64,000 bases of DNA, taken from contig JBEKBH010000001.1 in the NCBI GenBank assembly GCA_050015495.1, positions 28,284-92,283 on the forward strand, written 5' to 3'. The notes beneath the pieces are model-generated. The model ran no database searches. It worked only from the letters and a program-made list of their open reading frames with translations, and was not told the origin of the DNA. This DNA is from Verrucomicrobiia bacterium (lineage in GTDB: Bacteria; Verrucomicrobiota; Verrucomicrobiia; Palsa-1439). This document shows, piece by piece, positions 1,849-53,151 of this stretch. Each line of letters opens with the position of its first letter. Positions within the stretch are counted from its first letter, which is position 1. The translations under genes and the position numbers were made by a program.

Positions 1849-4800
1849 ATGGGCAATCGCGACGAACGTACCAAGCTGCTGACCGCATTGCTGGACGAAC
1901 GCATCCTCGTGCTCGATGGCGCGATGGGCACGATGATCCAGCAGCGCAACCTTTCTGCCGACGACTTTGGCGGCCCCGCGCTCGAGGGCTGCAACGAAAA
2001 CCTCGTGCTCACGCGGCCCGACGTGATTCTCGACATCCATCGCCAGTACTTCGAGGCGGGCGCGGACATCGTCGAGACCGACACGTTCGGCGGCACGCCG
2101 CTCGTGCTCAACGAATACGGCCTCGCCGACAAATGTTTCGCACTCAATGCCACCGCAGCGAAACTCGCGCGCCAAGCCGCCGCCGAGTTCTCGACCCCGG
2201 CGAAGCCGCGCTTCGTCGCCGCGTCCATCGGCCCGACCACGAAAGCCATCACGGTCACGGGCGGTGTGACGTTCGCGCAATTGATCGACCATTTCTATCA
2301 ACAGGTCCGCGGACTCGCTGAAGGCGGCGCCGACATCCTCCTCGTCGAAACCTGCCAGGACACGCGCAACATCAAGGCCGCGCTCATCGGCATCCAGCAG
2401 GCCTTCGACGAACTCGGTTATAAACTTCCGATCATGGTCTCGGGCACGATCGAACCCATGGGCACGATGCTCGCCGGCCAGGCCGCCGACGCCCTCGTCG
2501 CGTCGCTCCAGCACGTCGACCTGCTCAGCATCGGCCTCAACTGTGCGACCGGTCCCGAATTCATGACCGATCACATCCGCACCATCCATCAGATGGCCAA
2601 CACGCGCGTCTCCTGCTATCCCAACGCAGGTTTGCCGAACGAGGAAGGTCTGTACCTCGAAACGCCGACCTCGCTGGCGTCGGCGTTGGAGCGGTTCGTG
2701 AAAAACGGCTGGCTCAACATCGTCGGCGGCTGTTGCGGCACCACGCCGCCCCACATTAAAGCCATCGCGCAGATGGTCGACGGCAAACCCCCGCGCACAT
2801 TCCGGGCCGCGCGCAAATCCTGGTACACCGGCATCGAACTCGTCGAGGCGACCGACGACAATCGCCCGCTCATCGTCGGCGAGCGCACCAACGAGGTCGG
2901 CTCGCGCGCGTTCAAGCGCCTTATCACCGACGAGAAATTCGAAGAAGCCACCGAGATCGCCCGCGCCCAGGTCAAGAGCGGCGCACACATCATTGACATC
3001 AACCTCGAAAACACCGACCGCGACGAGTTGGCCGACATCGACCGCTTTTACGAGAAGGTCATTCACAAGGTCAAAGTGCCGTTCATGATCGATACGACGA
3101 ACGCTCGCGCCATCGAGCGCGCGCTCACGTATTGCCTCGGCAAAAGCATCATCAACTCGATCAATTTCGAGGACGGCGAGGAAAAATTCCACAAAGTCCT
3201 GCCGCTCGTAAAGAAGTTCGGCGCGGCCATCGTCATCGGTTCCATCGACGAGGACAAACTCCAGGCCCAGGCCATCACGCGCGAACGCAAACTCGCCGTC
3301 GCCCGGCGCGCCCGGGATTATTGCGTCGAGCGCGGGATCGCGGAAGAGGATTTGATCTTTGACGCGCTCGTGTTCCCGTGCGCCACCGGCGACGAGAACT
3401 ACATCGGCAGCGCCGTCGAGACCATCGAGGGCGTGCGCCTGATCAAACAAGCCCTGCCCAAATGCAAGACCGTCCTCGGCGTGAGCAACGTCAGTTTCGG
3501 TCTGCCGCCCGCCGCGCGCGAGGTCATCAATTCCGTCTTCCTCTATCACGCGACGAAAGCAGGTCTCGACCTCGCCATCGTCAACGCCGAGAAACTGGAG
3601 CGTTACGCCACGATTCCCGACAAGGAAAAGAAGCTCGTCGAACATCTTCTCTGGAACCTGCCGTTCGCCGGCTTCGATGCGCCCGACGATTACCGCCAGC
3701 AGACCCGCGAACAGCGCATCGCGATCAACCAGCATCACATCGCCGCCATCAATGAGCATTTTCGCACCGCCGAGAGCCGCGTCAAAAAGAAAACGTCGGA
3801 CCTCCCGCTGAATGGTCGCCTCGCCAATTACATCCTCGAAGGCTCGAAGGAAGGTCTCATCGACGATCTCAACCTCAAGCTGAAGGAAGCCGCGCCGCTC
3901 GACATCATCAACGGCCCGCTCATGGACGGGATGAAAGAGGTCGGCCGCCTGTTCAACGCCAACGAGTTGATCGTCGCCGAGGTGCTGCAAAGCGCCGAGG
4001 CCATGAAAGCCGCCGTCGCGCACCTCGAACAATTCATGGAGAAGAAAGCCGATTCGACGAAGGGCAAGGTCCTCCTCGCCACCGTCAAGGGCGACGTGCA
4101 CGACATCGGCAAGAACCTCGTCGAGATCATCCTCTCGAACAACGGGTTCAATGTCATCAATCTCGGCATTAAAGTCCCGCCCGAGGACCTGATCAAGGCC
4201 TACCGCGAGCACAAGCCCGACGCGATCGGCTTGTCCGGCCTGCTCGTCAAAAGCGCCCAGCAAATGGTCATCACCGCGGGCGACCTGAAACAGGCGGGCA
4301 TCACCGTCCCGTTGCTCGTCGGCGGCGCCGCGCTCAGCGACAAGTTTACCCGCACCCGTATCTCGCCCAGCTACGAGCGCGTCGTCGTCTATTGCAAGGA
4401 CGCCATGACCGGCCTGTCGATCATGAACCGGCTCATGGACCCCGCCGAACGCGACAAACTCGCCGTGGAACATGCCCCATCTGGAGGGCCACGCTCCGTC
4501 GTGGCCGCTGTAGACGAATTCCCGGAAACCACGCAGCGCAGTTCGCGCGTGCGGATCCTGCCGCCGCGCCCCGCGCCGTACGCCGACCGCAAAGTGCGCG
4601 ACGTGCCGCAGCTCCGCGAGATTTGGGAATACATCAACCCCCAGATGCTCTACGTCCGCCATCTCGGGTTCAAATCCAATTTCGAGAAGGCGCTCGCCGC
4701 CCGCGACCCGAAAGCGCTGGAATTGGCGAGCCTCGTCGACGACGTGAAAGCCGAGGCCGCCAAATTCATGAAGGTCAAAGCCGTCTGGCAATTCTTCGAT

Positions 4801-5493
4801 GCCGAAGCGGCGGGTAATTCGATTAAACTCTTTACCGCCGGAAGTTGTCATTCTGAGCGAAGCGAAGAATCTCAGTCGTCCGGGAAAACGACAGAGACCC
4901 TTCGACAAGCTCAGGGTGACAGATCGGAGAAAGCGGTGTCACTCCATACCTTCCATTTCCACCGTCAGCGGAAGCCGGATGGGCTTTGCCTGTCCGATTA
5001 CGTCATGCCTCCGGCTCGTTCCCCTCGCCCCTCGGGGGGAGAGGGTCAGGGTGAGGGGGTGCTCGTCCGTGATTCGACTGCCCTCTTCGTCGTTGGCGCG
5101 GGCGCCGGCATCCGCCACCGCGCCGAGGAATACAAAGCCAAAGGCGAATACCTCAAATCGCACGCCCTGCAAGCGCTCGCCATCGAGACCGCCGAAGGCT
5201 GCGCCGAATGGCTCCATCGCCGAATCCGTGAGGACTGGGGGTTCCCCGATCCCGCCGACACGACCATGATCGACCGTTTCCAGGCCCGCTACCAGGGCAA
5301 ACGCTACAGCTTCGGCTACCCCGCCTGCCCCGCCCTCGAGGATCAGGCCGGGATTTGGAAATTATTGAGGCCGGAGGACATTGGTGTTCAACTCACGGAA
5401 GGGTTTATGATGGACCCAGAGGCGTCGGTGAGTGCGCTGGTGTTTCACCATCCCGATTGCACGTATTTTGGTGTGGGAGATGTGACGGAATGA
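1849..5493 (+). CDS. metH: Cobalamin-dependent methionine synthase MetH (Hcy-binding, pterin-binding, B12-binding and AdoMet activation domains)
   Basis: A 1214-aa ORF carries the expected MetH domain order. The N-terminus reads LDGAMGTMIQ, with GLNCATGP and GGCCGTTP in the Hcy-binding domain. The B12-binding region includes VKGDVHDIGKNLV, and the C-terminus has GYPACPALEDQ in the activation domain. Two short in-frame repeat-derived insertions sit in the activation domain (see the repeat features). Confidence 0.95.
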   Translation: MGNRDERTKLLTALLDERILVLDGAMGTMIQQRNLSADDFGGPALEGCNENLVLTRPDVILDIHRQYFEAGADIVETDTFGGTPLVLNEYGLADKCFALNATAAKLARQAAAEFSTPAKPRFVAASIGPTTKAITVTGGVTFAQLIDHFYQQVRGLAEGGADILLVETCQDTRNIKAALIGIQQAFDELGYKLPIMVSGTIEPMGTMLAGQAADALVASLQHVDLLSIGLNCATGPEFMTDHIRTIHQMANTRVSCYPNAGLPNEEGLYLETPTSLASALERFVKNGWLNIVGGCCGTTPPHIKAIAQMVDGKPPRTFRAARKSWYTGIELVEATDDNRPLIVGERTNEVGSRAFKRLITDEKFEEATEIARAQVKSGAHIIDINLENTDRDELADIDRFYEKVIHKVKVPFMIDTTNARAIERALTYCLGKSIINSINFEDGEEKFHKVLPLVKKFGAAIVIGSIDEDKLQAQAITRERKLAVARRARDYCVERGIAEEDLIFDALVFPCATGDENYIGSAVETIEGVRLIKQALPKCKTVLGVSNVSFGLPPAAREVINSVFLYHATKAGLDLAIVNAEKLERYATIPDKEKKLVEHLLWNLPFAGFDAPDDYRQQTREQRIAINQHHIAAINEHFRTAESRVKKKTSDLPLNGRLANYILEGSKEGLIDDLNLKLKEAAPLDIINGPLMDGMKEVGRLFNANELIVAEVLQSAEAMKAAVAHLEQFMEKKADSTKGKVLLATVKGDVHDIGKNLVEIILSNNGFNVINLGIKVPPEDLIKAYREHKPDAIGLSGLLVKSAQQMVITAGDLKQAGITVPLLVGGAALSDKFTRTRISPSYERVVVYCKDAMTGLSIMNRLMDPAERDKLAVEHAPSGGPRSVVAAVDEFPETTQRSSRVRILPPRPAPYADRKVRDVPQLREIWEYINPQMLYVRHLGFKSNFEKALAARDPKALELASLVDDVKAEAAKFMKVKAVWQFFDAEAAGNSIKLFTAGSCHSERSEESQSSGKTTETLRQAQGDRSEKAVSLHTFHFHRQRKPDGLCLSDYVMPPARSPRPSGGEGQGEGVLVRDSTALFVVGAGAGIRHRAEEYKAKGEYLKSHALQALAIETAEGCAEWLHRRIREDWGFPDPADTTMIDRFQARYQGKRYSFGYPACPALEDQAGIWKLLRPEDIGVQLTEGFMMDPEASVSALVFHHPDCTYFGVGDVTE
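4845..4940. repeat. Miniature inverted-repeat element (core GTCATTCTGAGCGAAGCGAAGAATC) inserted in-frame in metH
   Basis: Imperfect terminal inverted repeats are gtcattctgagcgaagc (left) and gacaagctcagggtgac (right). The three-frame translations give the recognisable CHSERSEESQ / VILSEAKNL peptides. In the MetH frame the element encodes SCHSERSEESQSSGKTTETLRQAQGDRSEKAV, an extra ~30 aa relative to the canonical MetH activation-domain loop. Confidence 0.55.
5022..5059. repeat. GC-rich miniature repeat (CTCGCCCCTCGGGGGGAGAGGGTCAGGGTGAGGGG family) inserted in-frame in metH
   Basis: It is the same family as the intergenic copy at 16743-16779 (ctcgccccttcagggagaggattaaggtgagggg). In metH it encodes RSPRPSGGEGQGEG, inserted between conserved blocks LCLSDYVMPPA and VLVRDSTALF. 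Confidence 0.6.
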
Positions 5494-6875
5494 ATGATTT
5501 GCCGACTGAACTTGTTCCGAGATTTCGGACTGATAGGCCGAATGAAACCGTCAAGGTCATAGCCGACCGGATGTCGTTGATCCGCGATGACGAGGTGCTC
5601 CTCTCGGGGGATGGGGAGATCGAAATGTGCTGGCTGCCTAGCCCGGGCGTACGTTTTTCCATAAAGAGGAAGTCGGAATATCCGCATGAATTCTTCAAAT
5701 ATTTGGGCGATCCCATTCCGCAGGGGTGCAAGATCGTTCTTGAGTCTTCTGGCAAGAGGTTACCCGTTTTTGTCACCAGCCATAGCTTTCCCGAGGGATT
5801 CAGGATGTATCACGGACGTGTCCAAGACGATGCGATTCCAAGCACCTTTGAGATTAAGGAAGCGACGTTCCATTTGGCGAACTTTAAAGCCGTTTTGTGT
5901 GAGGCAGTTGCATATCAGCAAGGGGGTGGCTCGCGGCTGGGTCGCTTCCGATTGGAGGCAGACGGATGGACGATTATTGTGGATGACATCCAAAACGGCG
6001 GACGGCACGGCGATTTGGAGAAGCAGCTGGATGCACAGGGCGGTTACGCGATTACGCACGTAGGGCGAATTGCACGAGCAGACGGCGGGGCTTTTACGGG
6101 TGACCAATGTACTGTTCTGCACGACAGGCTGTTTTGGTTCTTCTCGTTCTGTCGTTGCTGCAAAACAGGTCCCATCCTTGTGGGGCTAACCGGGAAGAAC
6201 GAGAACGAGAACCGGCTATCGCTGGTGGAGCGTTCGGTCAGCAGCTGGCAGTATCGCTCGAGCTGGGTGCCGGAAACCGAATTTCAAGTTCTCCCGTTGC
6301 TGTTTCCGGGTTTCCTCAAACGGATAAATGAACCCTCTTGGTCGGACACGATAGCATACGCGATTCATTGGTATTTGGAAGTGCACGATCAGTCGGGAGC
6401 TATCCAAGGGGCAATTGTGTTCGGTCAGACGGCCCTCGAAATGTTAGGCTGGAGTCTACTGGTTGATGACCTTCGAAATATAAGTCGTGAAGGCTACGAT
6501 AAGTTACCGGCAAGTGATAAGATTCGCCTGCTCTTGACCACAGTCGGTGTACCTCGGGAAATCCCGCTGTCTTTCACGAGGCTCTTGCAGGCGGCAAAAG
6601 CGGAGAACTGGCAAGACGGTCCGGACGCTGTTTCAGGGATTCGCAATCGAATAGTCCATTCAAGCGCGGATAAGCGTAAGGCTCTAAGCAGGGTAGAGTT
6701 CTCGGCCATCTGTGAGGCTTGGGAGCTCTGTCTTTGGTACAACGAGCTTACGCTTTTGCGTCTGTTCGATTATTCCGGCCAGTATTTCGACAGGACACGG
6801 AGCGCGAAATACCGATCGGAGGGACACGCGCCCGTGCCTTGGGCCGCAAACGGTCAGGTGGGCAAGCCCTTATGA
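5490..6875 (+). CDS. Hypothetical 461-aa protein with a C-terminal RN-x3-H (HEPN-like) motif, ApeA-like architecture; candidate abortive-infection/toxin gene
   Basis: The ATG at 5490 overlaps the metH TGA (ATGA overlap). The gene has visibly lower GC than its flanks. The C-terminal region has GIRNRIVHSSADKRKAL, which fits the HEPN R-x4-6-H signature. The N-terminal ~300 aa have no motif I recognise. The ApeA N-terminal-domain plus HEPN architecture is named from memory. Confidence 0.6.
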   Translation: MNDLPTELVPRFRTDRPNETVKVIADRMSLIRDDEVLLSGDGEIEMCWLPSPGVRFSIKRKSEYPHEFFKYLGDPIPQGCKIVLESSGKRLPVFVTSHSFPEGFRMYHGRVQDDAIPSTFEIKEATFHLANFKAVLCEAVAYQQGGGSRLGRFRLEADGWTIIVDDIQNGGRHGDLEKQLDAQGGYAITHVGRIARADGGAFTGDQCTVLHDRLFWFFSFCRCCKTGPILVGLTGKNENENRLSLVERSVSSWQYRSSWVPETEFQVLPLLFPGFLKRINEPSWSDTIAYAIHWYLEVHDQSGAIQGAIVFGQTALEMLGWSLLVDDLRNISREGYDKLPASDKIRLLLTTVGVPREIPLSFTRLLQAAKAENWQDGPDAVSGIRNRIVHSSADKRKALSRVEFSAICEAWELCLWYNELTLLRLFDYSGQYFDRTRSAKYRSEGHAPVPWAANGQVGKPL

Positions 6876-7242: not shown

Positions 7243-7509
7243 AATGCGGTCCCTCCGATGAGTCGGGGTTGTCGGTTGCCCGGCATCGACCCGAATTCTG
7301 CCACGGGCGGGCCGCTTCCCGAAAGCCAAAACCGGCGGGTCCGCCACCGCGAGCAAGCGCTGTCCCAATCTCCGGGTGGAGGGACGCGCTCCGTCGCGTC
7401 CGCTGATATGAGAGATTACAGACGGCCACGACGGAGCGTGGCCCTCCAAGTCCGGTCATTGCACGGCTTGCAATCGGTTCTGCCTGTCACTACACTTTGC
7501 GTCAAACCC

Positions 7510-9526: not shown

Positions 9527-11857
9527 ATGGCGATGACCAACTCATACAAATGGCGTTTCTTTCGCGCGGGCGGATTCGACCAGGTGAAGCTGGACCGGGG
9601 CGCCGACCTCGCCCATCTCGACGAACTCGACCAGAAACTGTGGGTCGCGCTGGCCTGTCCCACACGCGGGATCGAGTTCGACACGAAAACGCTCGACCTC
9701 GTCGACACGGACAAGGACGGTCGGATTCGCGCCCCGGAAATCATCACGGCGGCGAAATGGGCCGCCGGTTGCCTCAAGAACCCCGACGATCTGTTGAAGT
9801 CGTCCCCGGCCCTGCCCTTGGCCGCCATCAACGACGCGACGCCCGAAGGCAAAACCTTGTTGTCGTCCGCGCGCCAAATCCTCTCCGATCTCGGCAAGAA
9901 AAACGCGACGGAAATCACGGTCGAGGACACGGCAGACACGACCAAGATCTTTTCGCAGACCAATTTCAATGGCGACGGCATCATTCCCGTCGATGCCGCG
10001 GCCGACGACGCCACCAAGGCGGTCATCACCGACATCATCAACTGTCTCGGCGCGGAAACCGACCGCAGCGGCAAGCCGGGCATCAACCAAGCCAAGCTCG
10101 ACCAGTTTTTCGCGGACGCCGCGGCCTATTCGGATTGGTGGAAGAAAGCCGAGGGCGACCTGAACGTGCTGCCGCTTCGCGACGCGACTCCCGCCGCCGC
10201 CGCCGCGCTCGCTGCCGTGAAAGCGAAAATTGACGATTACTTCGCCCGCTGTCGCCTGGCCGCGTTCGATCCGCGCGCGCTCGGCGCGCTCAACCGTGAA
10301 GAAAAAGAATACCTCGTACTGGGCGCCAAGGACCTTACCACCGGGTCGGCGGAAGTGGCCGGGTTTCCGCTGGCGCAGGTCGGTGCCGACCGTCCACTGC
10401 CGTTGCGCGCCGGAGTAAACCCGTCGTGGGCAGCAGCGCTGACACGATTTCAAGCGGAGGTTGTCAAACCGTTGGTCGGCGACAAAACGGCGCTGACCGA
10501 AGCGGATTGGGCGACTGTCCTTGGCAAATTTGCGGCCTACGACGCGTGGGCCGCCAGCAAAGCCGGCGCGTCGGTCGAGAAACTTGCCATCAAGCGCGTG
10601 CGCGAGATTCTGTCGAGCAAAGCCAGGGACGCAATCGCTGCTCTAATCGCCAAGGACCAGGCATTGGAACCCGAGTTCAACTCGATTTCGGCGGTGGATC
10701 GTCTGACGCGGTACTATCGCGACTTGTACAAGCTGCTGGTCAACTTCGTTTCCTTCCGCGACTTTTACGGTCGCAAAGCCAAGGCCGTTTTCCAGGCCGG
10801 GACGCTGTACCTCGACCAGAGAAGCTGCGAGTTGTGCGTCCGCGTGGAGGACATCGCCAAGCACAGCCTGATGGCGGCGTTGAGCGGTTCGTATCTGGCT
10901 TATTGCGAGTGCACGCGCAAGAGCACGGGTGAGACGATGACCATCGCCGCGGCGTTCACCGACGGTGACTCGGACAACCTGATGGTCGGACGCAACGGCA
11001 TCTTCTACGACCGCGCAGGACGTGACTGGGACGCCACCATCGTCAAATTGGTCGACAATCCAATCAGTCTGCGCCAGGCCTTTTGGTCGCCGTACAAGAA
11101 GCTGGTGCGGATGATCGAGGAACAGGTCGCCAAGCGGGCTGCCGTAGCCGACGCGGCCACGAACACGCAGTTGGCGCAAACCGCCGAGCAGGCCGCGAAC
11201 GCCGAGAAAGCCACGACCGCCGCCGCCGCGCAGCCGACAAAGAAATTCGACGTTGGCACCGTGGCTGCCCTGGGTGTGGCGTTCGGTTCGCTCGCCACGG
11301 CATTCGGCCTGATCTTTACGAAGCTGGCCGACATCGCGCCATGGAAGCTGTTATTTGTCGTGCTCGCGGTCATTCTGGCAATCTCGCTGCCGGCCGTGAT
11401 TATCGCGGCGCTAAAGCTGCGCAAGCGCAACCTCGGCCCGATCCTCGACGCCAACGGCTGGGCGGTCAACGCCAAGGCGAGGATCAATATCCCGTTCGGC
11501 GCGTCGTTGACGGAAGTGGCGGCGTTGCCGCCGGGTTCACAGCGGGATTTGACCGACCCGTTTGCCGAGAGCCACGCGGGACGCAATAAATTGGCCGTGG
11601 TACTCGTGCTGTTGGGAGTGTTGTGGAGCATGTGGTATTTCGGCTGCGTGTTGAACTATCTCCCGCAAGGCCTGCAAGACGCGTTGCCGAAATCGGGTTA
11701 CGTCCTGCGCAAGGAAAAACGCATGGCGGAAGCACAAGCCCGGGCCGCCGCTGCTGCAGCGACTCAAGCCCCCACACCGGTGCCGGCACCCGCTCTGCCG
11801 CCTCCACCCACGCCTCCGCCCGCACCGGCTCCCGCACCGGCACCAGCAACGCCATAA
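9527..11857 (+). CDS. Large hypothetical protein (776 aa) with canonical EF-hand Ca-binding loop, C-terminal TM helices and Pro/Ala-rich tail
   Basis: The start is MAMTNSYKWRFF. The 12-residue loop DTDKDGRIRAPE fits the EF-hand consensus D-x-D-x-DG-x-I-x-x-x-E. A second degenerate loop is NFNGDGIIPVD. Two TM segments lie near residues 610-640 and 700-720. The C-terminus is PTPVPAPALPPPPTPPPAPAPAPAPATP. It matches no family I can name. Confidence 0.55.
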   Translation: MAMTNSYKWRFFRAGGFDQVKLDRGADLAHLDELDQKLWVALACPTRGIEFDTKTLDLVDTDKDGRIRAPEIITAAKWAAGCLKNPDDLLKSSPALPLAAINDATPEGKTLLSSARQILSDLGKKNATEITVEDTADTTKIFSQTNFNGDGIIPVDAAADDATKAVITDIINCLGAETDRSGKPGINQAKLDQFFADAAAYSDWWKKAEGDLNVLPLRDATPAAAAALAAVKAKIDDYFARCRLAAFDPRALGALNREEKEYLVLGAKDLTTGSAEVAGFPLAQVGADRPLPLRAGVNPSWAAALTRFQAEVVKPLVGDKTALTEADWATVLGKFAAYDAWAASKAGASVEKLAIKRVREILSSKARDAIAALIAKDQALEPEFNSISAVDRLTRYYRDLYKLLVNFVSFRDFYGRKAKAVFQAGTLYLDQRSCELCVRVEDIAKHSLMAALSGSYLAYCECTRKSTGETMTIAAAFTDGDSDNLMVGRNGIFYDRAGRDWDATIVKLVDNPISLRQAFWSPYKKLVRMIEEQVAKRAAVADAATNTQLAQTAEQAANAEKATTAAAAQPTKKFDVGTVAALGVAFGSLATAFGLIFTKLADIAPWKLLFVVLAVILAISLPAVIIAALKLRKRNLGPILDANGWAVNAKARINIPFGASLTEVAALPPGSQRDLTDPFAESHAGRNKLAVVLVLLGVLWSMWYFGCVLNYLPQGLQDALPKSGYVLRKEKRMAEAQARAAAAAATQAPTPVPAPALPPPPTPPPAPAPAPAPATP

Positions 11858-46405: not shown

Positions 46406-47359
46406 ATGACGAACACAATCACGCAAATCGATCTGGCGGGCGTCCCGAAACTCAAGAGCGGCAAAGTCCGCGAGGTCTTCGACCTCGGGGATTCGCTGCT
46501 GTTCGTGGCCACCGACCGCATCAGCGCGTTCGATGTCATCCTGCCCAACCCGATCCCCGAAAAGGGCCGCGTCCTCACCGCCCTGAGCGAATTCTGGTTT
46601 GGCAAGACCCGGCACATCGTCGAGAACCATTTCATCACGTCCGATTTGGCCGGGCAGGCGCGCCGTTTGCCGAAATCGGTGGCCGCCGCGCGGGCCGCGC
46701 TGCAGGGCCGCTCGATGCTCGTGCGCAAGTGCCAGCCGCTCCCGGTCGAATGCGTCGTGCGCGGGTACCTCGCCGGTTCCGGGCTTAAAGAATACAAGCA
46801 GTCGCAAACCGTCTGCGGCATCAAGCTGCCCGACGGGCTTGTCGAATCCAGCCCGCTCCCCCAACCCATTTTCACGCCCGCGACCAAGGCCGAGACCGGC
46901 CACGACGAGAACATCGATTTCGACCGGTGCGCGCAAATCCTCGGCAGACCGCTCGCCGAGAAAGTGCGCGACACCTCGCTCGCCCTGTACAGTTACGCCC
47001 GTGATTATGCGGCCACGCGCGGCATCATCATCGCCGATACCAAATTCGAGTTCGGGCTCCGTTCTGAAACTGTAGCGGCGGTCTATGACCGCCGAGCGGA
47101 TTCGGCGCTCGCAGAGCGCCGCTACAGCGGCCAGTTGATTCTCATCGACGAAGCGCTCACGCCTGACAGTTCCCGTTTCTGGCCCGCCGACGGCTACGCG
47201 CCGGGCAAACCCCAACCGAGTTTCGACAAGCAATTCGTCCGCGATTACCTCGAAACCCTCGATTGGGACAAGACACCGCCGGGACCGGTCCTGCCCGACA
47301 CCGTCATCCGCAAGACCACCGAGAAATACCTCGAAGCGCTCACAAAGCTCACCTCCTAG
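46406..47359 (+). CDS. purC: Phosphoribosylaminoimidazole-succinocarboxamide synthase (SAICAR synthetase, long form)
   Basis: The blocks GKVREVF, FVATDRISAFD, DTKFEFG and LILIDEALTPDSSRFW match SAICAR synthetase. A ~22-aa palindromic-repeat-encoded insertion sits after DTKFEFG. Confidence 0.9.
   Translation: MTNTITQIDLAGVPKLKSGKVREVFDLGDSLLFVATDRISAFDVILPNPIPEKGRVLTALSEFWFGKTRHIVENHFITSDLAGQARRLPKSVAAARAALQGRSMLVRKCQPLPVECVVRGYLAGSGLKEYKQSQTVCGIKLPDGLVESSPLPQPIFTPATKAETGHDENIDFDRCAQILGRPLAEKVRDTSLALYSYARDYAATRGIIIADTKFEFGLRSETVAAVYDRRADSALAERRYSGQLILIDEALTPDSSRFWPADGYAPGKPQPSFDKQFVRDYLETLDWDKTPPGPVLPDTVIRKTTEKYLEALTKLTS
47070..47128. repeat. Palindromic miniature element inserted in-frame in purC
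   Basis: The outer arms are ctgtagcggcg and cgccgctacag. The internal sub-palindrome is ggcgctc gca gagcgcc. In the purC frame it encodes RSETVAAVYDRRADSALAERRYSGQ, sitting between conserved blocks TKFEFG and LILIDE. Confidence 0.55.
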
Positions 47360-47976: not shown

Positions 47977-50900
47977 ATGCACCGAATGCGGCGCGGTTGT
48001 CTGATCGCGGGATTTCTCGTCTGGATTGCGCTGCCGGCTATCTCGCACGCGCAAACCATTCCCAGCGCTCCAACCAATCTTCAGGCCACCGCGGCATCGC
48101 CATTCCAGATCAACCTGACTTGGATCGACACGTCCACCAACGAAAGCGGATACATGGTCGAGCGGTCGCTCGACGGGATCAATTTCACCCAGATCGCACA
48201 ACTGCTGCCCCAAACAGCGACTTACCGCGACACCGGAGCGTGGCCTGGCACGACTTATTACTACCGCGTACGCGCGTACAATACATCGGGCGACTCGGGT
48301 GTTTCCGCGATTGCGAGTGGGGCTACACCGGCGGTGTGCAACGCATCGGCTGTGGCTTGGGGGTGGAACGGGTACGGCCAAACGGCGGTCCCGACGAATC
48401 TGAGTGGCGTGGTAGCCGTCTCTGCCGGCATGGAGGACAGTTTCGTCTTGCGCAGTGATGGCACAGTCCTCGGTTGGGGCGACAACAGTTATGGGATATT
48501 GACACCGCCCGCCGGTCTTACCGGCGTGGTGGCCGTATCTGCCAATGTTGCCAGTACGCTCGCGCTGAAGAGCGACGGCACCATGGTGATGTGGGGCTTT
48601 GAGTGGGATCAGTTGCCGAATGTGACCGGGGTGGTGGCCATCGCGAATGGATGGCAGCATAGTCTGGCTTTGTTAAGCGACGGCACTGTTATTGGTTGGG
48701 GATTGAACGAGTCGGGTCAGATCAGCATCCCCACAAATCTAGCGGGGGTTGTGGCCATCGCAGCGGGTGGTTATCACAGCCTGGCGTTGAAAAGCGACGG
48801 TACCGTCGTCGGCTGGGGAAATGGCGGGTCGGGACTGGCGACTCCACCGACCAACCTCACCGGAGTGGTCGCGATCGCAGCTGGCGGCCACCATAGTCTG
48901 GCGCTGAAGAGCGACGGCACGGTTGTCGGCTGGGGCGATAACACCTACGGCCAGGCAACACCGCCTGCCGGATTAACTGGAGTGACGGCGATCTCGGCGG
49001 GTTGGCAACATAGTTTGGCCTTGATGAGCGACGGCACCATCATCGGATGGGGCGACGATAGCAATGGCCAAATCAGTCCCCCTGCCGGGCTGGCCGGGGT
49101 CACGGCCATTTCCGCCGGCTACCTTCACAGCTTGGCGGTGGCGCCAGTGATCAACGCGCCGTCAAATCTTACCGCGACGGCAGTTTCGACCAATCAGATC
49201 AATCTGGCGTGGACAAGCAGTGGCCCTGTGGACGGCTTCAACATTCGGCGGGCACCGGACAATGGCGGCAGCCCGGGGGCTTGGACTCAAATCGCGACGG
49301 TGGGTCCCAACACCACGAATTACAATGACGCCGGACTTGCCTCGAACGCAACGTATTGGTACCAACTGCAGGCTTTCACGGTCTGTGGAGTATCCTTTTT
49401 CACGGATCCGGCAAGCGCCGCTGTGCCATCGGTAGCCGCGCCGTCGGGACTCTCGGCAACGGGTGTTTCGGCTGGCCAAATCAATCTCACTTGGACAAAT
49501 AACAGCACGACGGAGAACGGCTTCCTCATCGAACGCGCTCCGGACAACGGTGGCGTTCCGGGCACGTGGACGCAAATCGCCTCGGTCAACTCAAGTACCA
49601 CGGCTTACAGCGATACAGGGCTTCTGCCGTTCACACTATATTGGTACCGCGTACGAGCGTATGACAATAGTGGGGATTCTGTTTATAGCAACTTGGCCAG
49701 CGCGTTCGTCCCGGCTCCGTGTCCGAGATACGTCGCCGGCTGGGGATACAATGCGAGTGGTCAGGCAACGGCCCTGACAGGACTGGTTTCGGCCATTGCC
49801 ATTGCCGCGTTTGGCGATGGGAGCCTCGCACTCACGAGTGATGGCACCGTCCCGTTGTGGGATACGCAAGTGACACCACCAGCAACGTTAACGGGGGTTG
49901 TGGCCATCGCTATGGGCTCTGGATTCAATCTGGCATTGAAGGGCGACGGGACCGTGATCGGCTCGGGTAATGACATGTGGGGTCAACTCACTCCGCCGGC
50001 GGGAACGACGGGCGTTGTTGCCATCGCCGCCGGCGGGTTCGAAAGCCTGGCACTCCAGAGTAATGGCATTCTTGTTGTCTGGGGTGACACCCGCGGCGTC
50101 ACCTCGCTAACCGGAATCGTCGCCATGGCCTCGGGCGATTACCACAGCCTGGCGGTGTACACCAATGGCACGGTGGTTGGCTGGGGTAACAATAACTACG
50201 GCCAAGCGACTTCCCCGCCGGGGTTGACTGGCGTGGTCGCTGTCGCTGTCGGTGACTATCATAGTCTGGCATTGAAGAGCGATGGCACCGTTGTGCAATG
50301 GGGCACCACCATTTATGGGGAGTCCGTGCCGCCGGCAGGTTTGTCGGGCGTCGTGGCCATCGCCGCCGGTGGAACTTTCAGTCTGGCACTCAAGAGCGAC
50401 GGCACCGTCGTCGCTTGGGGTGACAATCAGTATGGGGAGTCGACTCCGCCGGAGGGCCTTGCGAACGTGATCGCCATCGCCGCCGGCTGGGACCACAGTT
50501 TGGCATTGAGCCTGCCATGTCCGTTGAGCGCTCCTTCGGCGTTGACCGCGACCCTTCTCTGGCCAAGCCAGATCAATCTCTCTTGGCTTAACAATTCGTT
50601 TGACGAGGACGGGTTCAAGATTGAGCGCGCTCCGGACAACGGCGGAGTTCCGGGCACTTGGGCGCAAATTGCCACGGTCAGTTCCAACGTCGCCACTTAC
50701 AGCGATACCGGACTTTCCCAAGGTGTGACATATTGGTACCGCGTACGAACCTACAACGTGGCAGGAAATTCCGATTACAGCAACCTGACGAACGCCACGA
50801 TTCTACTACCGCCCGTGGCTCCGTCGGGTCTGACCGCGACGCCGTTGTCCAGTGTCCAAATCAGTTTGTCGTGGACGGACACCGCCAATGATGAGACCGG

Positions 50901-53151
50901 GTTTGCCATTGAGCGCGCTCCCGACACCGGGGGTAGTCCGGGGACGTTCGCTCAGATCGCCACCGTCAATTCGAATGTGACCGCCTATACCGACACGAGC
51001 TTGACGACAAACACGACGTATTGGTATCGCGTGCGGGCGTCCAACGCCGGCGGTTATTCCCCCTACAGTAACCAAGCGGACGCAACGACCTTCCGTCCCC
51101 CTCCTGATTCCTGGATTAGTCTGGCGAGCGGAAAATGGGAAGCAGCAGGAAGTTGGTCGTTGGGCGTGCCGCCTTCGATCCTCCTCACCGGGGAGCTGAT
51201 CACCAACGACAATTCCAAGACAGTCACAATCGATGCTACGACCGTCAGCAATTCCCCCAGCACCCTCACCATCAGCAACCTGACGGTGTCCGCCCCGTCA
51301 GGAGGGACGAATACGCTCCTGTTGACCACCGGGGGCAGTCCAACGCCGCTCCACGTGTTGCGCGGAATCTCGCTTGGGTCGGGCGGCCTGCTGGACATCG
51401 AGAATTCTTCGTTGCAGGTCGACGCGAACACTTTCTGGATTGACGGTACGCTGCTCGTCCAGAACGGTGGTCAAGTTACACCTCCGACACGGCCTGAAGG
51501 GGTCAACCAACTCGTGATCGGCAATGTGGCTACCGGCATGATGGTCGTATCGGCGGGGACGGTTGTGAGCGAAGGGGGTACCGTCGCCTATGAGGCTGGT
51601 TCGCAGGGGACGCTCGTCATTTCGAACGGAGCGACTATCCGGCTCTCATACCTCGCCATCGCTGAGTCTGGCTACTACTCGACGGGCGCTGTGTGGCTCT
51701 CGGGTAGTGAGTTGACCACGACAAACTACGGACAGCCGAATTTTGTGTTCGTTGGCCAGTGGGGCGCAGGCCAGATGACGGTGTCGAATGGCATGGTGCT
51801 GTCAGGTCAAGCCTACGTGGGATACTACCCTGGCTCGTGCGGAACTTTGACCGTGGTCGGTGGCAGCGTAACCCTTTCCTCGGCACTCACTGTCGGCTAC
51901 GACTCCGGTGCGACGGGCGCGGTCTGGCTGGCCGGTGGCCAGCTTGTCGCAAGTGGTAAGGGCACCGCGAGTATCGGCGCGAACGGGGCTGGTCAATTGA
52001 CAGTCACGGGCGGCACCATGCAAGCTTCGTCGATGGTTATCGGGCAGTACGGCGGCTCGCAGGGTTCATTGACGGTGTCGGGCGGCGCGGTTTCGGTCTT
52101 GTCGAGCCTCGTGATCGGCGATTGTACTACGACCGCGAGCGGCCAGGTCGCTGTGGCTGGCAGCGGAAGCCTGTTTGTAACCAACGCGAGCCACACGGCG
52201 TTTCTCGACGTGCGTCATGGCACGCTGATGGTCGGCGCCGGCGGCGTGCTCGTGGCGGACAGGATCGTGGCCACCAACGCCTGCGGGCGGGTCATTCGCT
52301 CAAGCGGAGGCACGATCACCGCCACGACAATGACTCTGGATCCCTCCCTCAGCGCGGTCGGCGACGGTATCCCGAACGGATGGAAACAACAATACGGCTT
52401 CGACCCGTTCGATCCCAACCTCGCCAATGAGGACCTGGACGGCTCCGGGTTCACTGTTTTGCAAGACTACTTGGCCGGCCTCGACCCCACCAATCCTGCG
52501 TCGTCGTTCCGGATTACGGCGATCACTCCGGTCGGTACCGATATCCGGGTGTACTTCACGTCTGTCGGCGGGAAGTATTATTCGTTGCAAAGGTCTGACT
52601 TCATGGGCGGCGCGTGGACGGCCATCGCGACCAATATCCCCGGCAATGACAGCATCCAATGGGTCAAAGATATCGGCGCGGCCTCGCGCCCGAGTGCGTT
52701 CTACCGAATCCTGCTCGAACAGTTGACCAACGCTCCGCCGGTGGACAGCGATGGCGATGGCGTACCGGACTGGTGGACGCAAGAATACTTCGGACATCCC
52801 ACAGGCCAGGCGTCCGATAATTCACTGGCGACGGACGATCCCGACGGTACCGGATTCACCGTCCTGCAGGATTATCTGGCCGGCCTCGACCCGACCAACA
52901 GTGCGTCGTCGTTCCGGATCACTTCGGTCGTGCCGAGCGGCATCGACTTGTTGGTGACGTGGACGATGGGTCCCGGCCGGACCAACGCCCTGCAGGCGAC
53001 GGCGGGGGACGCGACCGGCAGCTACAACACCAACGACTTCGCCGACATCTTTACCGTCACCAACACGGTCGGCACGACGACCAACTACCTCGACACCGGC
53101 GCCGCGACCAACTTCCCTGCGAGATACTATCGTGTGCGTCTGATACCATAA
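47977..53151 (+). CDS. Giant (1724 aa) secreted surface protein: RCC1-like repeats, multiple fibronectin type III domains, PATR/beta-helix repeat region, C-terminal DxDGDG (thrombospondin-3-like) Ca-binding-like repeats
   Basis: A signal peptide is followed by more than 15 repeats of the type GWGxNxYGQxTPPAGLTGVVAIAAGxxHSLAL, which are RCC1-like. FN3-like units have the pattern INLTWTxxSxxExGFxIERAPDNGG..YWYRVRAYN. The region 1100-1450 has repeated GxxxVxxGGxLxV beta-helix-like strands. DSDGDGVPDWW-type motifs sit near the C-terminus. Confidence 0.85.
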   Translation: MHRMRRGCLIAGFLVWIALPAISHAQTIPSAPTNLQATAASPFQINLTWIDTSTNESGYMVERSLDGINFTQIAQLLPQTATYRDTGAWPGTTYYYRVRAYNTSGDSGVSAIASGATPAVCNASAVAWGWNGYGQTAVPTNLSGVVAVSAGMEDSFVLRSDGTVLGWGDNSYGILTPPAGLTGVVAVSANVASTLALKSDGTMVMWGFEWDQLPNVTGVVAIANGWQHSLALLSDGTVIGWGLNESGQISIPTNLAGVVAIAAGGYHSLALKSDGTVVGWGNGGSGLATPPTNLTGVVAIAAGGHHSLALKSDGTVVGWGDNTYGQATPPAGLTGVTAISAGWQHSLALMSDGTIIGWGDDSNGQISPPAGLAGVTAISAGYLHSLAVAPVINAPSNLTATAVSTNQINLAWTSSGPVDGFNIRRAPDNGGSPGAWTQIATVGPNTTNYNDAGLASNATYWYQLQAFTVCGVSFFTDPASAAVPSVAAPSGLSATGVSAGQINLTWTNNSTTENGFLIERAPDNGGVPGTWTQIASVNSSTTAYSDTGLLPFTLYWYRVRAYDNSGDSVYSNLASAFVPAPCPRYVAGWGYNASGQATALTGLVSAIAIAAFGDGSLALTSDGTVPLWDTQVTPPATLTGVVAIAMGSGFNLALKGDGTVIGSGNDMWGQLTPPAGTTGVVAIAAGGFESLALQSNGILVVWGDTRGVTSLTGIVAMASGDYHSLAVYTNGTVVGWGNNNYGQATSPPGLTGVVAVAVGDYHSLALKSDGTVVQWGTTIYGESVPPAGLSGVVAIAAGGTFSLALKSDGTVVAWGDNQYGESTPPEGLANVIAIAAGWDHSLALSLPCPLSAPSALTATLLWPSQINLSWLNNSFDEDGFKIERAPDNGGVPGTWAQIATVSSNVATYSDTGLSQGVTYWYRVRTYNVAGNSDYSNLTNATILLPPVAPSGLTATPLSSVQISLSWTDTANDETGFAIERAPDTGGSPGTFAQIATVNSNVTAYTDTSLTTNTTYWYRVRASNAGGYSPYSNQADATTFRPPPDSWISLASGKWEAAGSWSLGVPPSILLTGELITNDNSKTVTIDATTVSNSPSTLTISNLTVSAPSGGTNTLLLTTGGSPTPLHVLRGISLGSGGLLDIENSSLQVDANTFWIDGTLLVQNGGQVTPPTRPEGVNQLVIGNVATGMMVVSAGTVVSEGGTVAYEAGSQGTLVISNGATIRLSYLAIAESGYYSTGAVWLSGSELTTTNYGQPNFVFVGQWGAGQMTVSNGMVLSGQAYVGYYPGSCGTLTVVGGSVTLSSALTVGYDSGATGAVWLAGGQLVASGKGTASIGANGAGQLTVTGGTMQASSMVIGQYGGSQGSLTVSGGAVSVLSSLVIGDCTTTASGQVAVAGSGSLFVTNASHTAFLDVRHGTLMVGAGGVLVADRIVATNACGRVIRSSGGTITATTMTLDPSLSAVGDGIPNGWKQQYGFDPFDPNLANEDLDGSGFTVLQDYLAGLDPTNPASSFRITAITPVGTDIRVYFTSVGGKYYSLQRSDFMGGAWTAIATNIPGNDSIQWVKDIGAASRPSAFYRILLEQLTNAPPVDSDGDGVPDWWTQEYFGHPTGQASDNSLATDDPDGTGFTVLQDYLAGLDPTNSASSFRITSVVPSGIDLLVTWTMGPGRTNALQATAGDATGSYNTNDFADIFTVTNTVGTTTNYLDTGAATNFPARYYRVRLIP

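Follow-up and report, generated by a model that had tools for sequence, protein, structure and literature searches.

The closest described systems to the element reported here are the GTAG-type REPs and their RAYT transposases (Nunvar 2010, PMC2817692; Bertels and Rainey 2011, PMC3116915; Di Nocera 2013, PMC3733652). Such REPs combine a 5′ GTAG tag with a GC-rich hairpin, are dispersed as singlets and as inverted doublets with variable spacers (REPINs), show compensatory variants of their stems and flank a single gene for a REP-associated tyrosine transposase (RAYT), an arrangement referred to as a REPtron. All of these features recur in the family to which our element, located in purC, belongs. 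Unlike typical GTAG REPs and REPINs, however, the purC copy is intragenic and its family spans two phyla. REPIN-RAYT systems are described in abstracts on the subject as mostly inherited vertically within lineages. GTAG REPs that reside inside genes and form dimers with variable spacers have been documented (Di Nocera et al., BMC Genomics 14:522, PMC3733652). In that study, intragenic GTAG REPs were most abundant in Opitutus terrae, where they belong to families GTAG-17 to GTAG-20, and dimers or grouped repeats that encode 20-30 amino acids accounted for more than half of the intragenic inserts; they were compared to the palindromic elements of Rickettsia (RPEs), of which RPE-4 and RPE-6 were equated with CGTC-type REPs. 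The element in purC shares with the O. terrae repeats the phylum and the in-frame occurrence of singles and dimers in known genes, but its REP sequence is another one and so is the encoded peptide, VAAVYDRR in PurC as against, for example, VGPALAAG in O. terrae. The supplementary tables of PMC3733652 list neither purC nor the VAAVYDRR peptide, and our literature search found no paper on the REP core sequence or the insert peptide. The comparison of orthologues presented below goes beyond the O. terrae study by adding allelic turnover and conservation at the nucleotide level. Clearly, the phenomenon as such is already known from Opitutus terrae and Rickettsia, and the purC case is a new example of it.

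Two further systems invite comparison. RPEs, reportedly described by Ogata and colleagues around 2000, are AT-rich elements of about 100-150 nt that are known only from Rickettsia and are not known to be of the GTAG/RAYT type. Like them, the purC element is a selfish palindrome lying in-frame in coding sequence, that of housekeeping genes included, and tolerated in a permissive part of the protein. Unlike them, it is 58 nt long, GC-rich, GTAG-tagged and found in Verrucomicrobiota and Acidobacteriota; the sequences are unrelated and the resemblance is functional only. The inserts in gene 60 of phage T4 and the mitochondrial byp elements of Magnusiomyces are skipped by the ribosome and may hold stop codons or break the frame. 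They are likewise short structured inserts in the coding sequence of an essential gene, but in purC the frame and the stop-free state are conserved, which points to read-through.

We analysed a 64-kb stretch of Verrucomicrobiia DNA (hereafter the window), in which purC, the gene for SAICAR synthetase, is present on the plus strand at positions 46406-47359 as an intact open reading frame of 317 amino acids. The assignment is based on the ORF list, PDB and Pfam matches and synteny: full-length matches were obtained in the PDB (E 1e-74), including the enzymes from yeast (1A48, E 8e-74) and Mycobacterium (3R9R, E 8e-71), Pfam family PF01259 was present in every PurC homologue examined, and the gene order pepA-purC is conserved across the orthologous loci. 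The host is a soil or peat Verrucomicrobium, and a REP doublet lies in-frame in a variable loop of its PurC protein. This enlarged loop (L218-Q243, LRSETVAAVYDRRADSALAERRYSGQ, codons 47057-47134, plus strand) is situated between the FEFG and LILIDE strands and comprises 26 residues, compared with the five residues (LDGDK) of the baseline form, and thus contains 21 extra residues or 63 nt, close enough to the approximately 22 originally predicted. According to sequence alignment, the yeast and Mycobacterium structures have 19-20 residues fewer between the same two strands. In the E. coli enzyme, the strands equivalent to FEFG and LILIDE presumably carry the Mg-binding Glu and Asp. The insert loop itself is most likely surface-exposed. 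Its placement was taken from the sequence alignment; an AlphaFold2 model calculated from a 44-sequence alignment had a mean pLDDT of 37.8 and was not usable. As the identical PurC protein is encoded on at least four contigs from at least two independent samples (JGI 3300041415, Logan SRR33405628), the insert is not an assembly artefact. Directly 3′ of purC resides an ORF for 1724 amino acids (47977-53151, plus strand) in which motifs resembling RCC1-type and fibronectin-III-type repeats can be recognized by eye.

The original prediction of a palindrome in-frame in purC, with its outer arms and one inner hairpin, held at positions 47070-47127. Here, a near-perfect palindrome of 58 nt is formed by two arms of 26 nt (47070-47095 and 47102-47127) that are 85% complementary and separated by 6 nt, with CTGTAGCGGCG and CGCCGCTACAG as its outer parts. 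Each arm contains a REP. The left REP (47072-47094, plus strand) consists of a GTAG tag (47072-47075) followed by a perfect hairpin at 47076-47094 that had escaped the original prediction, CGGCGGTC-TAT-GACCGCCG, with a stem of 8 bp and the loop TAT. It matches the family motif (GTAGCGGCGSTCNNNGASCGCCG) exactly and is identical to the REPs that bracket RAYT genes in two other genomes (L027 and L134, see below). A spacer of 8 nt (AGCGGATT, 47095-47102), read from the sequence, leads to the right REP (47103-47125, minus strand), which is inverted, also matches the motif exactly, and carries CTAC on the plus strand at 47122-47125 next to another perfect hairpin with an 8-bp stem at 47103-47121, CGGCGCTC-GCA-GAGCGCCG (loop GCA on the plus strand). 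The right REP is the C-type stem variant and differs from the left one by a compensatory exchange of G-C for C-G that is seen family-wide. The minimum-free-energy fold of the whole element is a single long hairpin. Compared with shuffled sequences, its RNA fold reached z scores of -3.9 (plus strand) and -5.5 (minus strand) and its DNA fold -4.5, with none of 200 shuffles as good in either case. When the window was searched with a degenerate form of the REP motif, three matches were obtained against 0.09 expected, and all of them fell inside the purC element; the motif scan revealed one doublet of this family in the 64 kb and no second copy. The two REPs, at 23 nt each, are short imperfect palindromes within the 20-40 nt typical of REPs and end in GTAG; inverted with respect to each other and separated by a short spacer, they form the one long hairpin that characterizes a REPIN. 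The location departs from the extragenic one of GTAG REPs, the purC copy lying in-frame inside a gene. The purC element is a GTAG-type REP doublet (REPIN), with an architecture shared by 61 doublets elsewhere.

These doublets came to light when prokaryotic genomes, one for each species, were scanned with the 19-nt core of the left hairpin as the query. This core was matched by at least 120 stretches, which come from roughly 90 verrucomicrobial and acidobacterial MAGs. Most of the matches listed belong to Verrucomicrobiota (Chthoniobacterales, Opitutia, Verrucomicrobiae and unclassified members) and about one quarter to Acidobacteriota. Some of the listed acidobacterial copies reside on contigs of 0.7-2.2 Mb, including Terriglobia contigs of 1-2 Mb, and mis-binning is therefore ruled out for them. 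The few listed matches in MAGs labelled Betaproteobacteria or Bifidobacteriaceae, on the other hand, are probably mis-binned contigs. After removal of redundancy, the matches listed amount to 128 copies, of which 61 are inverted doublets and 67 are singlets. Spacers of the 61 listed doublets measure 1-67 nt, most often 20-24 nt. Note that the right arms were left unconstrained in the search. Two stem types occur among them, CGGCGGTC/GACCGCCG and CGGCGCTC/GAGCGCCG, which are one compensatory exchange apart; at stem pair 6, among the matches listed, about 35 of these right arms have G-C, about 25 have C-G and only 1 of 61 is mismatched. Several MAGs among the matches listed contain three to five separate loci (e.g., QHWY01, CAJCIA01, JACRKC01), and JBEKLM01, a close relative without the copy in purC (L001), has a REP copy elsewhere (L087). 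The same 25-nt GTAG REP is found in two phyla, Verrucomicrobiota and Acidobacteriota (loci L007-L126, matches listed). Such a distribution is atypical of REPIN-RAYT systems, which are described as vertically inherited, and suggests horizontal transfer among soil and peat bacteria.

The transposase side of the system was studied by tblastn with the RAYT sequences of Additional file 5 of Di Nocera et al. as queries against the window and all other loci. RAYT-like ORFs were present in four loci, while the 64-kb window gave no tblastn match. In an Opitutia MAG (L027), the ORF at 3269-3730 is a REP-associated tyrosine transposase according to NCBIfam model NF047646 (88 bits, cut-off 80) and also matches Pfam Y1_Tnp. 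It is bracketed on both sides by this family's REP, CTGTAGCGGCGGTCTGTGACCGCCG upstream and CGGCGGTCATAGACCGCCGCTACAG downstream. A second RAYT (P0140 in L134), 71% identical to the first, has precisely the REP of the window purC on either side. In L049, the same REP lies 3′ of a RAYT remnant on a contig that shows the 3′ side only. More distant transposases are accompanied by correspondingly diverged repeats: the RAYT of L113 (47% identical) has diverged GTAG REPs, and next to the Terriglobia RAYT P0157 of L132 (64% identical) the GTAG REP has diverged by compensatory stem changes. Cognate RAYT genes flanked by REPs, i.e., REPtrons, were thus encountered in other genomes (L027, L134) and not inside the window, and we infer that the source genome encodes a RAYT as well. 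The original description of the palindrome as REP/MITE-like can now be given more precisely as a dispersed, GTAG-tagged REP family that flanks RAYT genes. Copies at non-homologous sites, together with presence and absence among near-identical purC alleles, would indicate that the family is mobile. The Terriglobia RAYT (MAG GCA_035531475.1, L132/L133, 1372-2090) is inserted with its flanking REP doublets between cas1 and cas2, which belong to a Cas9 (type II) CRISPR locus.

Thirteen of the 128 listed copies lie within long ORFs with coding-type GC3 in the flanks. In five genes, Pfam domains straddle the element, namely those for MetH, PheS, a Cu P-type ATPase, a class I/II aminotransferase and a PKS; the insertion sites include the linker between the homocysteine and pterin domains of MetH, the PheS core and the DH-KR linker of the PKS. 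Copies associated with rho, rimO and a peptidase gene were rejected as intragenic, because they are located upstream of the likely true start and are thus extragenic. Truly intragenic copies accordingly make up about 4-6% and extragenic ones about 94-96% of the 128 sampled copies (matches listed). Typical bacterial coding density is roughly 85-90%. The intragenic share is far below this value, and most intragenic insertions must therefore be purged. A genome-wide tendency of small palindromes to colonise coding loops had been proposed. The in-frame copies in the five genes and the several inserts in PurC bear this out, but with the great majority of sampled copies being extragenic, coding loops are an exception that is tolerated for this REP family rather than sites it prefers. 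In the left arm, the frame used gives VAAVYDRR, and both other frames hold TAG or TGA (CTG TAG, CTA TGA). For the right arm, GGHRPPLQ, AVIDRRYS/SALAERRYS and RRSQTAAT were found by reading the sequences. Intragenic copies use stop-free frames only, which would fit translation through the element and argue against excision or ribosomal bypass. When a concatenated insert-peptide query of 45 amino acids was run against a protein database, 60 candidates were reached and only five weak matches resulted.

We compared the purC DNA of six orthologues and surveyed the loops of 120 close PurC homologues. In the latter, the baseline protein has 291 amino acids and the loops TSDYAKLxARVGxVESLRG and LDGDK. 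Both loops are hypervariable and contain at least five different repeat-derived peptides across MAGs. Besides the purC REPIN, recurrent repeat-like peptides are VTPSLSRGL...EMLRQAQHD, ECADSSALS...RQSGDKSPHSK, VVGQAxRLP...AALQ and VAPVPGA...TAATTP; shorter loop forms were also found and look decayed. The first of these peptides, checked at the DNA level in L004, derives from the same dispersed palindromic family as an insert in metH of the window (see below), and the ECADSSALS, VVGQAxRLP and VAPVPGA peptides may represent separate repeat families, judging from the peptides. The same element as in the window occupies the same loop in purC of L002, L003 and L005, and a related element is present in the second loop, after NHFITSD, in L004 and L005. 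Their shared layout is (C/T)TGTAG, hairpin, spacer, inverted hairpin and CTACAG. In L005 (P0099), the right arm of the purC REPIN encloses an additional small hairpin (CCCCGAAAGCTTTCGGGG, within 10700-10800) that leaves the frame open, and the other loop contains a variant REPIN (CSGASAKRR..SALHRSAAT). Site 1 of the window purC (46640-46715) was considered as an old palindromic insert and rejected, as its fold z score was +0.25.

An 8-nt spacer is common to the purC copies of the window, L002 and L003, whose flanking codons are homologous. Because this spacer is atypical for a family with a mode of 20-24 nt, and because the flanking codons are homologous among the copies, the pattern points to one ancestral insertion in purC and not to repeated hits. 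To this extent, the insert is a conserved lineage-specific loop, one of two observations that the original prediction had set against itself: several orthologues share the insert, the site and the spacer. The other, a lack of similar palindromes elsewhere, is contradicted outright by the number of stretches matched in the scan. Turnover of the loop is nevertheless fast. A protein with the REPIN (P0002) is 100% identical outside the loops to one with a 12-aa loop (P0012, MLGHPGSSSQSK). At the DNA level, the flanks are about 98% identical between L127 (3560-3800) and both L128 (2290-2490) and L129 (1229-1429), and the loop is encoded by a 78-nt REPIN in the former and by 36 unrelated nucleotides in the latter two. 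This replacement suggests allele exchange by recombination within the population and not a fresh insertion. Among the purC alleles compared, there was no clean empty site. L001 and L006 had been considered and were rejected, as their loop of 12 aa is a different one that may be the decayed remnant of a hairpin from another family, and the pair L128/L129 versus L127 was rejected because the loop is replaced wholesale.

We consider it highly probable that the purC element is a mobile REP/REPIN repeat of the RAYT type which was inserted into a loop of PurC, is tolerated there and is translated. The element would be a non-autonomous mobile repeat made up of two inverted, GTAG-tagged hairpins with 8-bp stems and a short spacer. 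RAYTs, HUH/Y1 enzymes acting on single-stranded hairpin DNA, would recognize and presumably move such a doublet, and one copy would have landed in, or recombined into, the turn between the PurC strands FEFG and LILIDE. It would have been retained because the frame used is free of stops, because the element together with a few flanking bases lengthens the gene by 63 nt (21 aa), a number divisible by three, and because the loop is tolerant. The element would be translated as an extra, probably disordered loop (VAAVYDRRADSALAERRYSG) without a selected function of its own that is neutral for PurC, and the enzyme would stay functional. The sequence would be maintained as nucleotides, whether through selection for the hairpin and for recognition by RAYT or through conversion from other genomic copies. 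Three rival explanations together attract a small part of our credence.

Evidence bearing on these rivals comes from the codon positions. In the comparison of the window with L003, identity within the element is 0.95/0.95/0.95 at codon positions 1/2/3 (60 of 63 nt) as opposed to 0.91/0.90/0.57 in the rest of purC, and for the 20 of 21 identical third positions a binomial estimate gives p ~1e-4. With third positions 95% identical in the element versus 57% elsewhere in the gene, constraint or homogenisation acts on DNA or RNA and not on the peptide. Such a pattern could also arise if the hairpin were kept for a role in host RNA or DNA at purC, for example in stabilisation or decay control of the mRNA, translational pausing or gyrase/IHF-like binding as for the REPs/BIMEs of E. 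coli. Roles of this kind are documented for REPs (PMC3733652, and in abstracts of other papers), both hairpins are kept at the nucleotide level across orthologues with heavily diverged synonymous sites, and the stems of the family show compensatory changes. However, RAYT recognition or gene conversion among copies predicts the same conservation, close relatives lack the element, and in L002/L127 the right arm has decayed while purC is intact. Furthermore, nothing ties the element to regulation of purC: Rfam covariance models applied to the whole window at the gathering threshold gave no match, and a terminator/promoter scan around purC gave no terminator-like site. We regard a host role as quite improbable.

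Even less probable is a functional, lineage-specific PurC loop under selection at the protein level, with the palindrome being incidental. It would account for the insert, its position, the frame and the 8-nt spacer being shared at 76-85% protein identity (P0001-3, P0015, P0061, P0079, P0099), but not for the equal conservation at all codon positions just described. In addition, this DNA lies mostly between genes in the approximately 90 other genomes (matches listed) and flanks RAYT genes, other genes read the REP family in other frames, and in close relatives whose flanks are identical or 96% identical, the loop is unrelated or is the 5-aa baseline. Excision of the palindrome from the mRNA, or its bypass as in T4 gene 60 and Magnusiomyces byp, with mature PurC lacking the insert, is just as improbable: the mRNA hairpin is very stable (-44 kcal/mol) and bypassed GC-rich palindromic inserts are known in yeast mitochondria, but all of the intragenic copies examined lack stops and preserve the downstream frame, including those with differing spacers or a nested insertion, although excision and bypass need neither, the stop-containing frames are never used, and neither a gene-60-type pair of take-off and landing codons nor a stop codon was found on reading the sequence.

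The preferred reading of a tolerated, translated mobile repeat can be taken one step further. Since the hairpins are near-perfect, at least five repeat families occur in the loops and loops are swapped wholesale, intragenic REPINs might not be passive passengers; the loops might be re-templated by gene conversion or RAYT-mediated exchange, or the hairpin might have a role in the purC mRNA, within a REP-RAYT family spanning two phyla. We judge this extension unlikely. If it were true, the two-phylum REP-RAYT family would imply horizontal spread of a system that is generally regarded as vertically inherited. Irrespective of this, the purC locus is a well-documented natural case in which a housekeeping enzyme accommodates 21 additional residues derived from selfish DNA, and it points to two loops of PurC as permissive. 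Intragenic GTAG REPs, published for Opitutus terrae, are thereby recorded in uncultivated Verrucomicrobia of soil and peat as well, with added detail on hot-spot loops, allele turnover, conservation at the nucleotide level and a REP-RAYT family in two phyla. For the annotation of MAGs it is relevant that such inserts inflate variation in protein length and create spurious "lineage-specific loops" and hypothetical ORFs; naming them as REPs guards against over-interpretation.

Further repeats are present in the window. The palindrome in purC had been counted as the third case of its kind together with two in metH (1849-5493, plus strand). One of these, insert 1 (4846-4921, GTCATTCTGAGCGAAGCGAAGAATC ... 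CTTCGACAAGCTCAGGGTGAC), is indeed a palindromic repeat and lies in-frame, encoding the peptide CHSERSEES...LRQAQGDR, but it represents another family. The z score of its DNA fold is -4.8, and the insert amounts to about 28 extra residues compared with Thermus MetH. In unrelated loci totalling 0.9 Mb, the left arm of insert 1 was detected 14 times when up to three mismatches were allowed, frequently in inverted doublets, and in L004 and other MAGs the PurC loop is occupied by this family. The second metH insert (around 5018-5060, SPRPSGGEGQGEG) proved unsupported: its fold z score was -0.8, it had no other copies in the loci searched, and the corresponding loop of Thermus MetH is of similar length. 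A third REPIN-like family is represented at 7377-7448, where the tag TGGAGG and the hairpin GGACGCG-CTCCGT-CGCGTCC are followed by an inverted partner. This doublet has a DNA fold z score of -6.8 and seven related copies in other loci, and is probably intergenic, being located between an ORF that ends at 6875 and one that starts at 7497.
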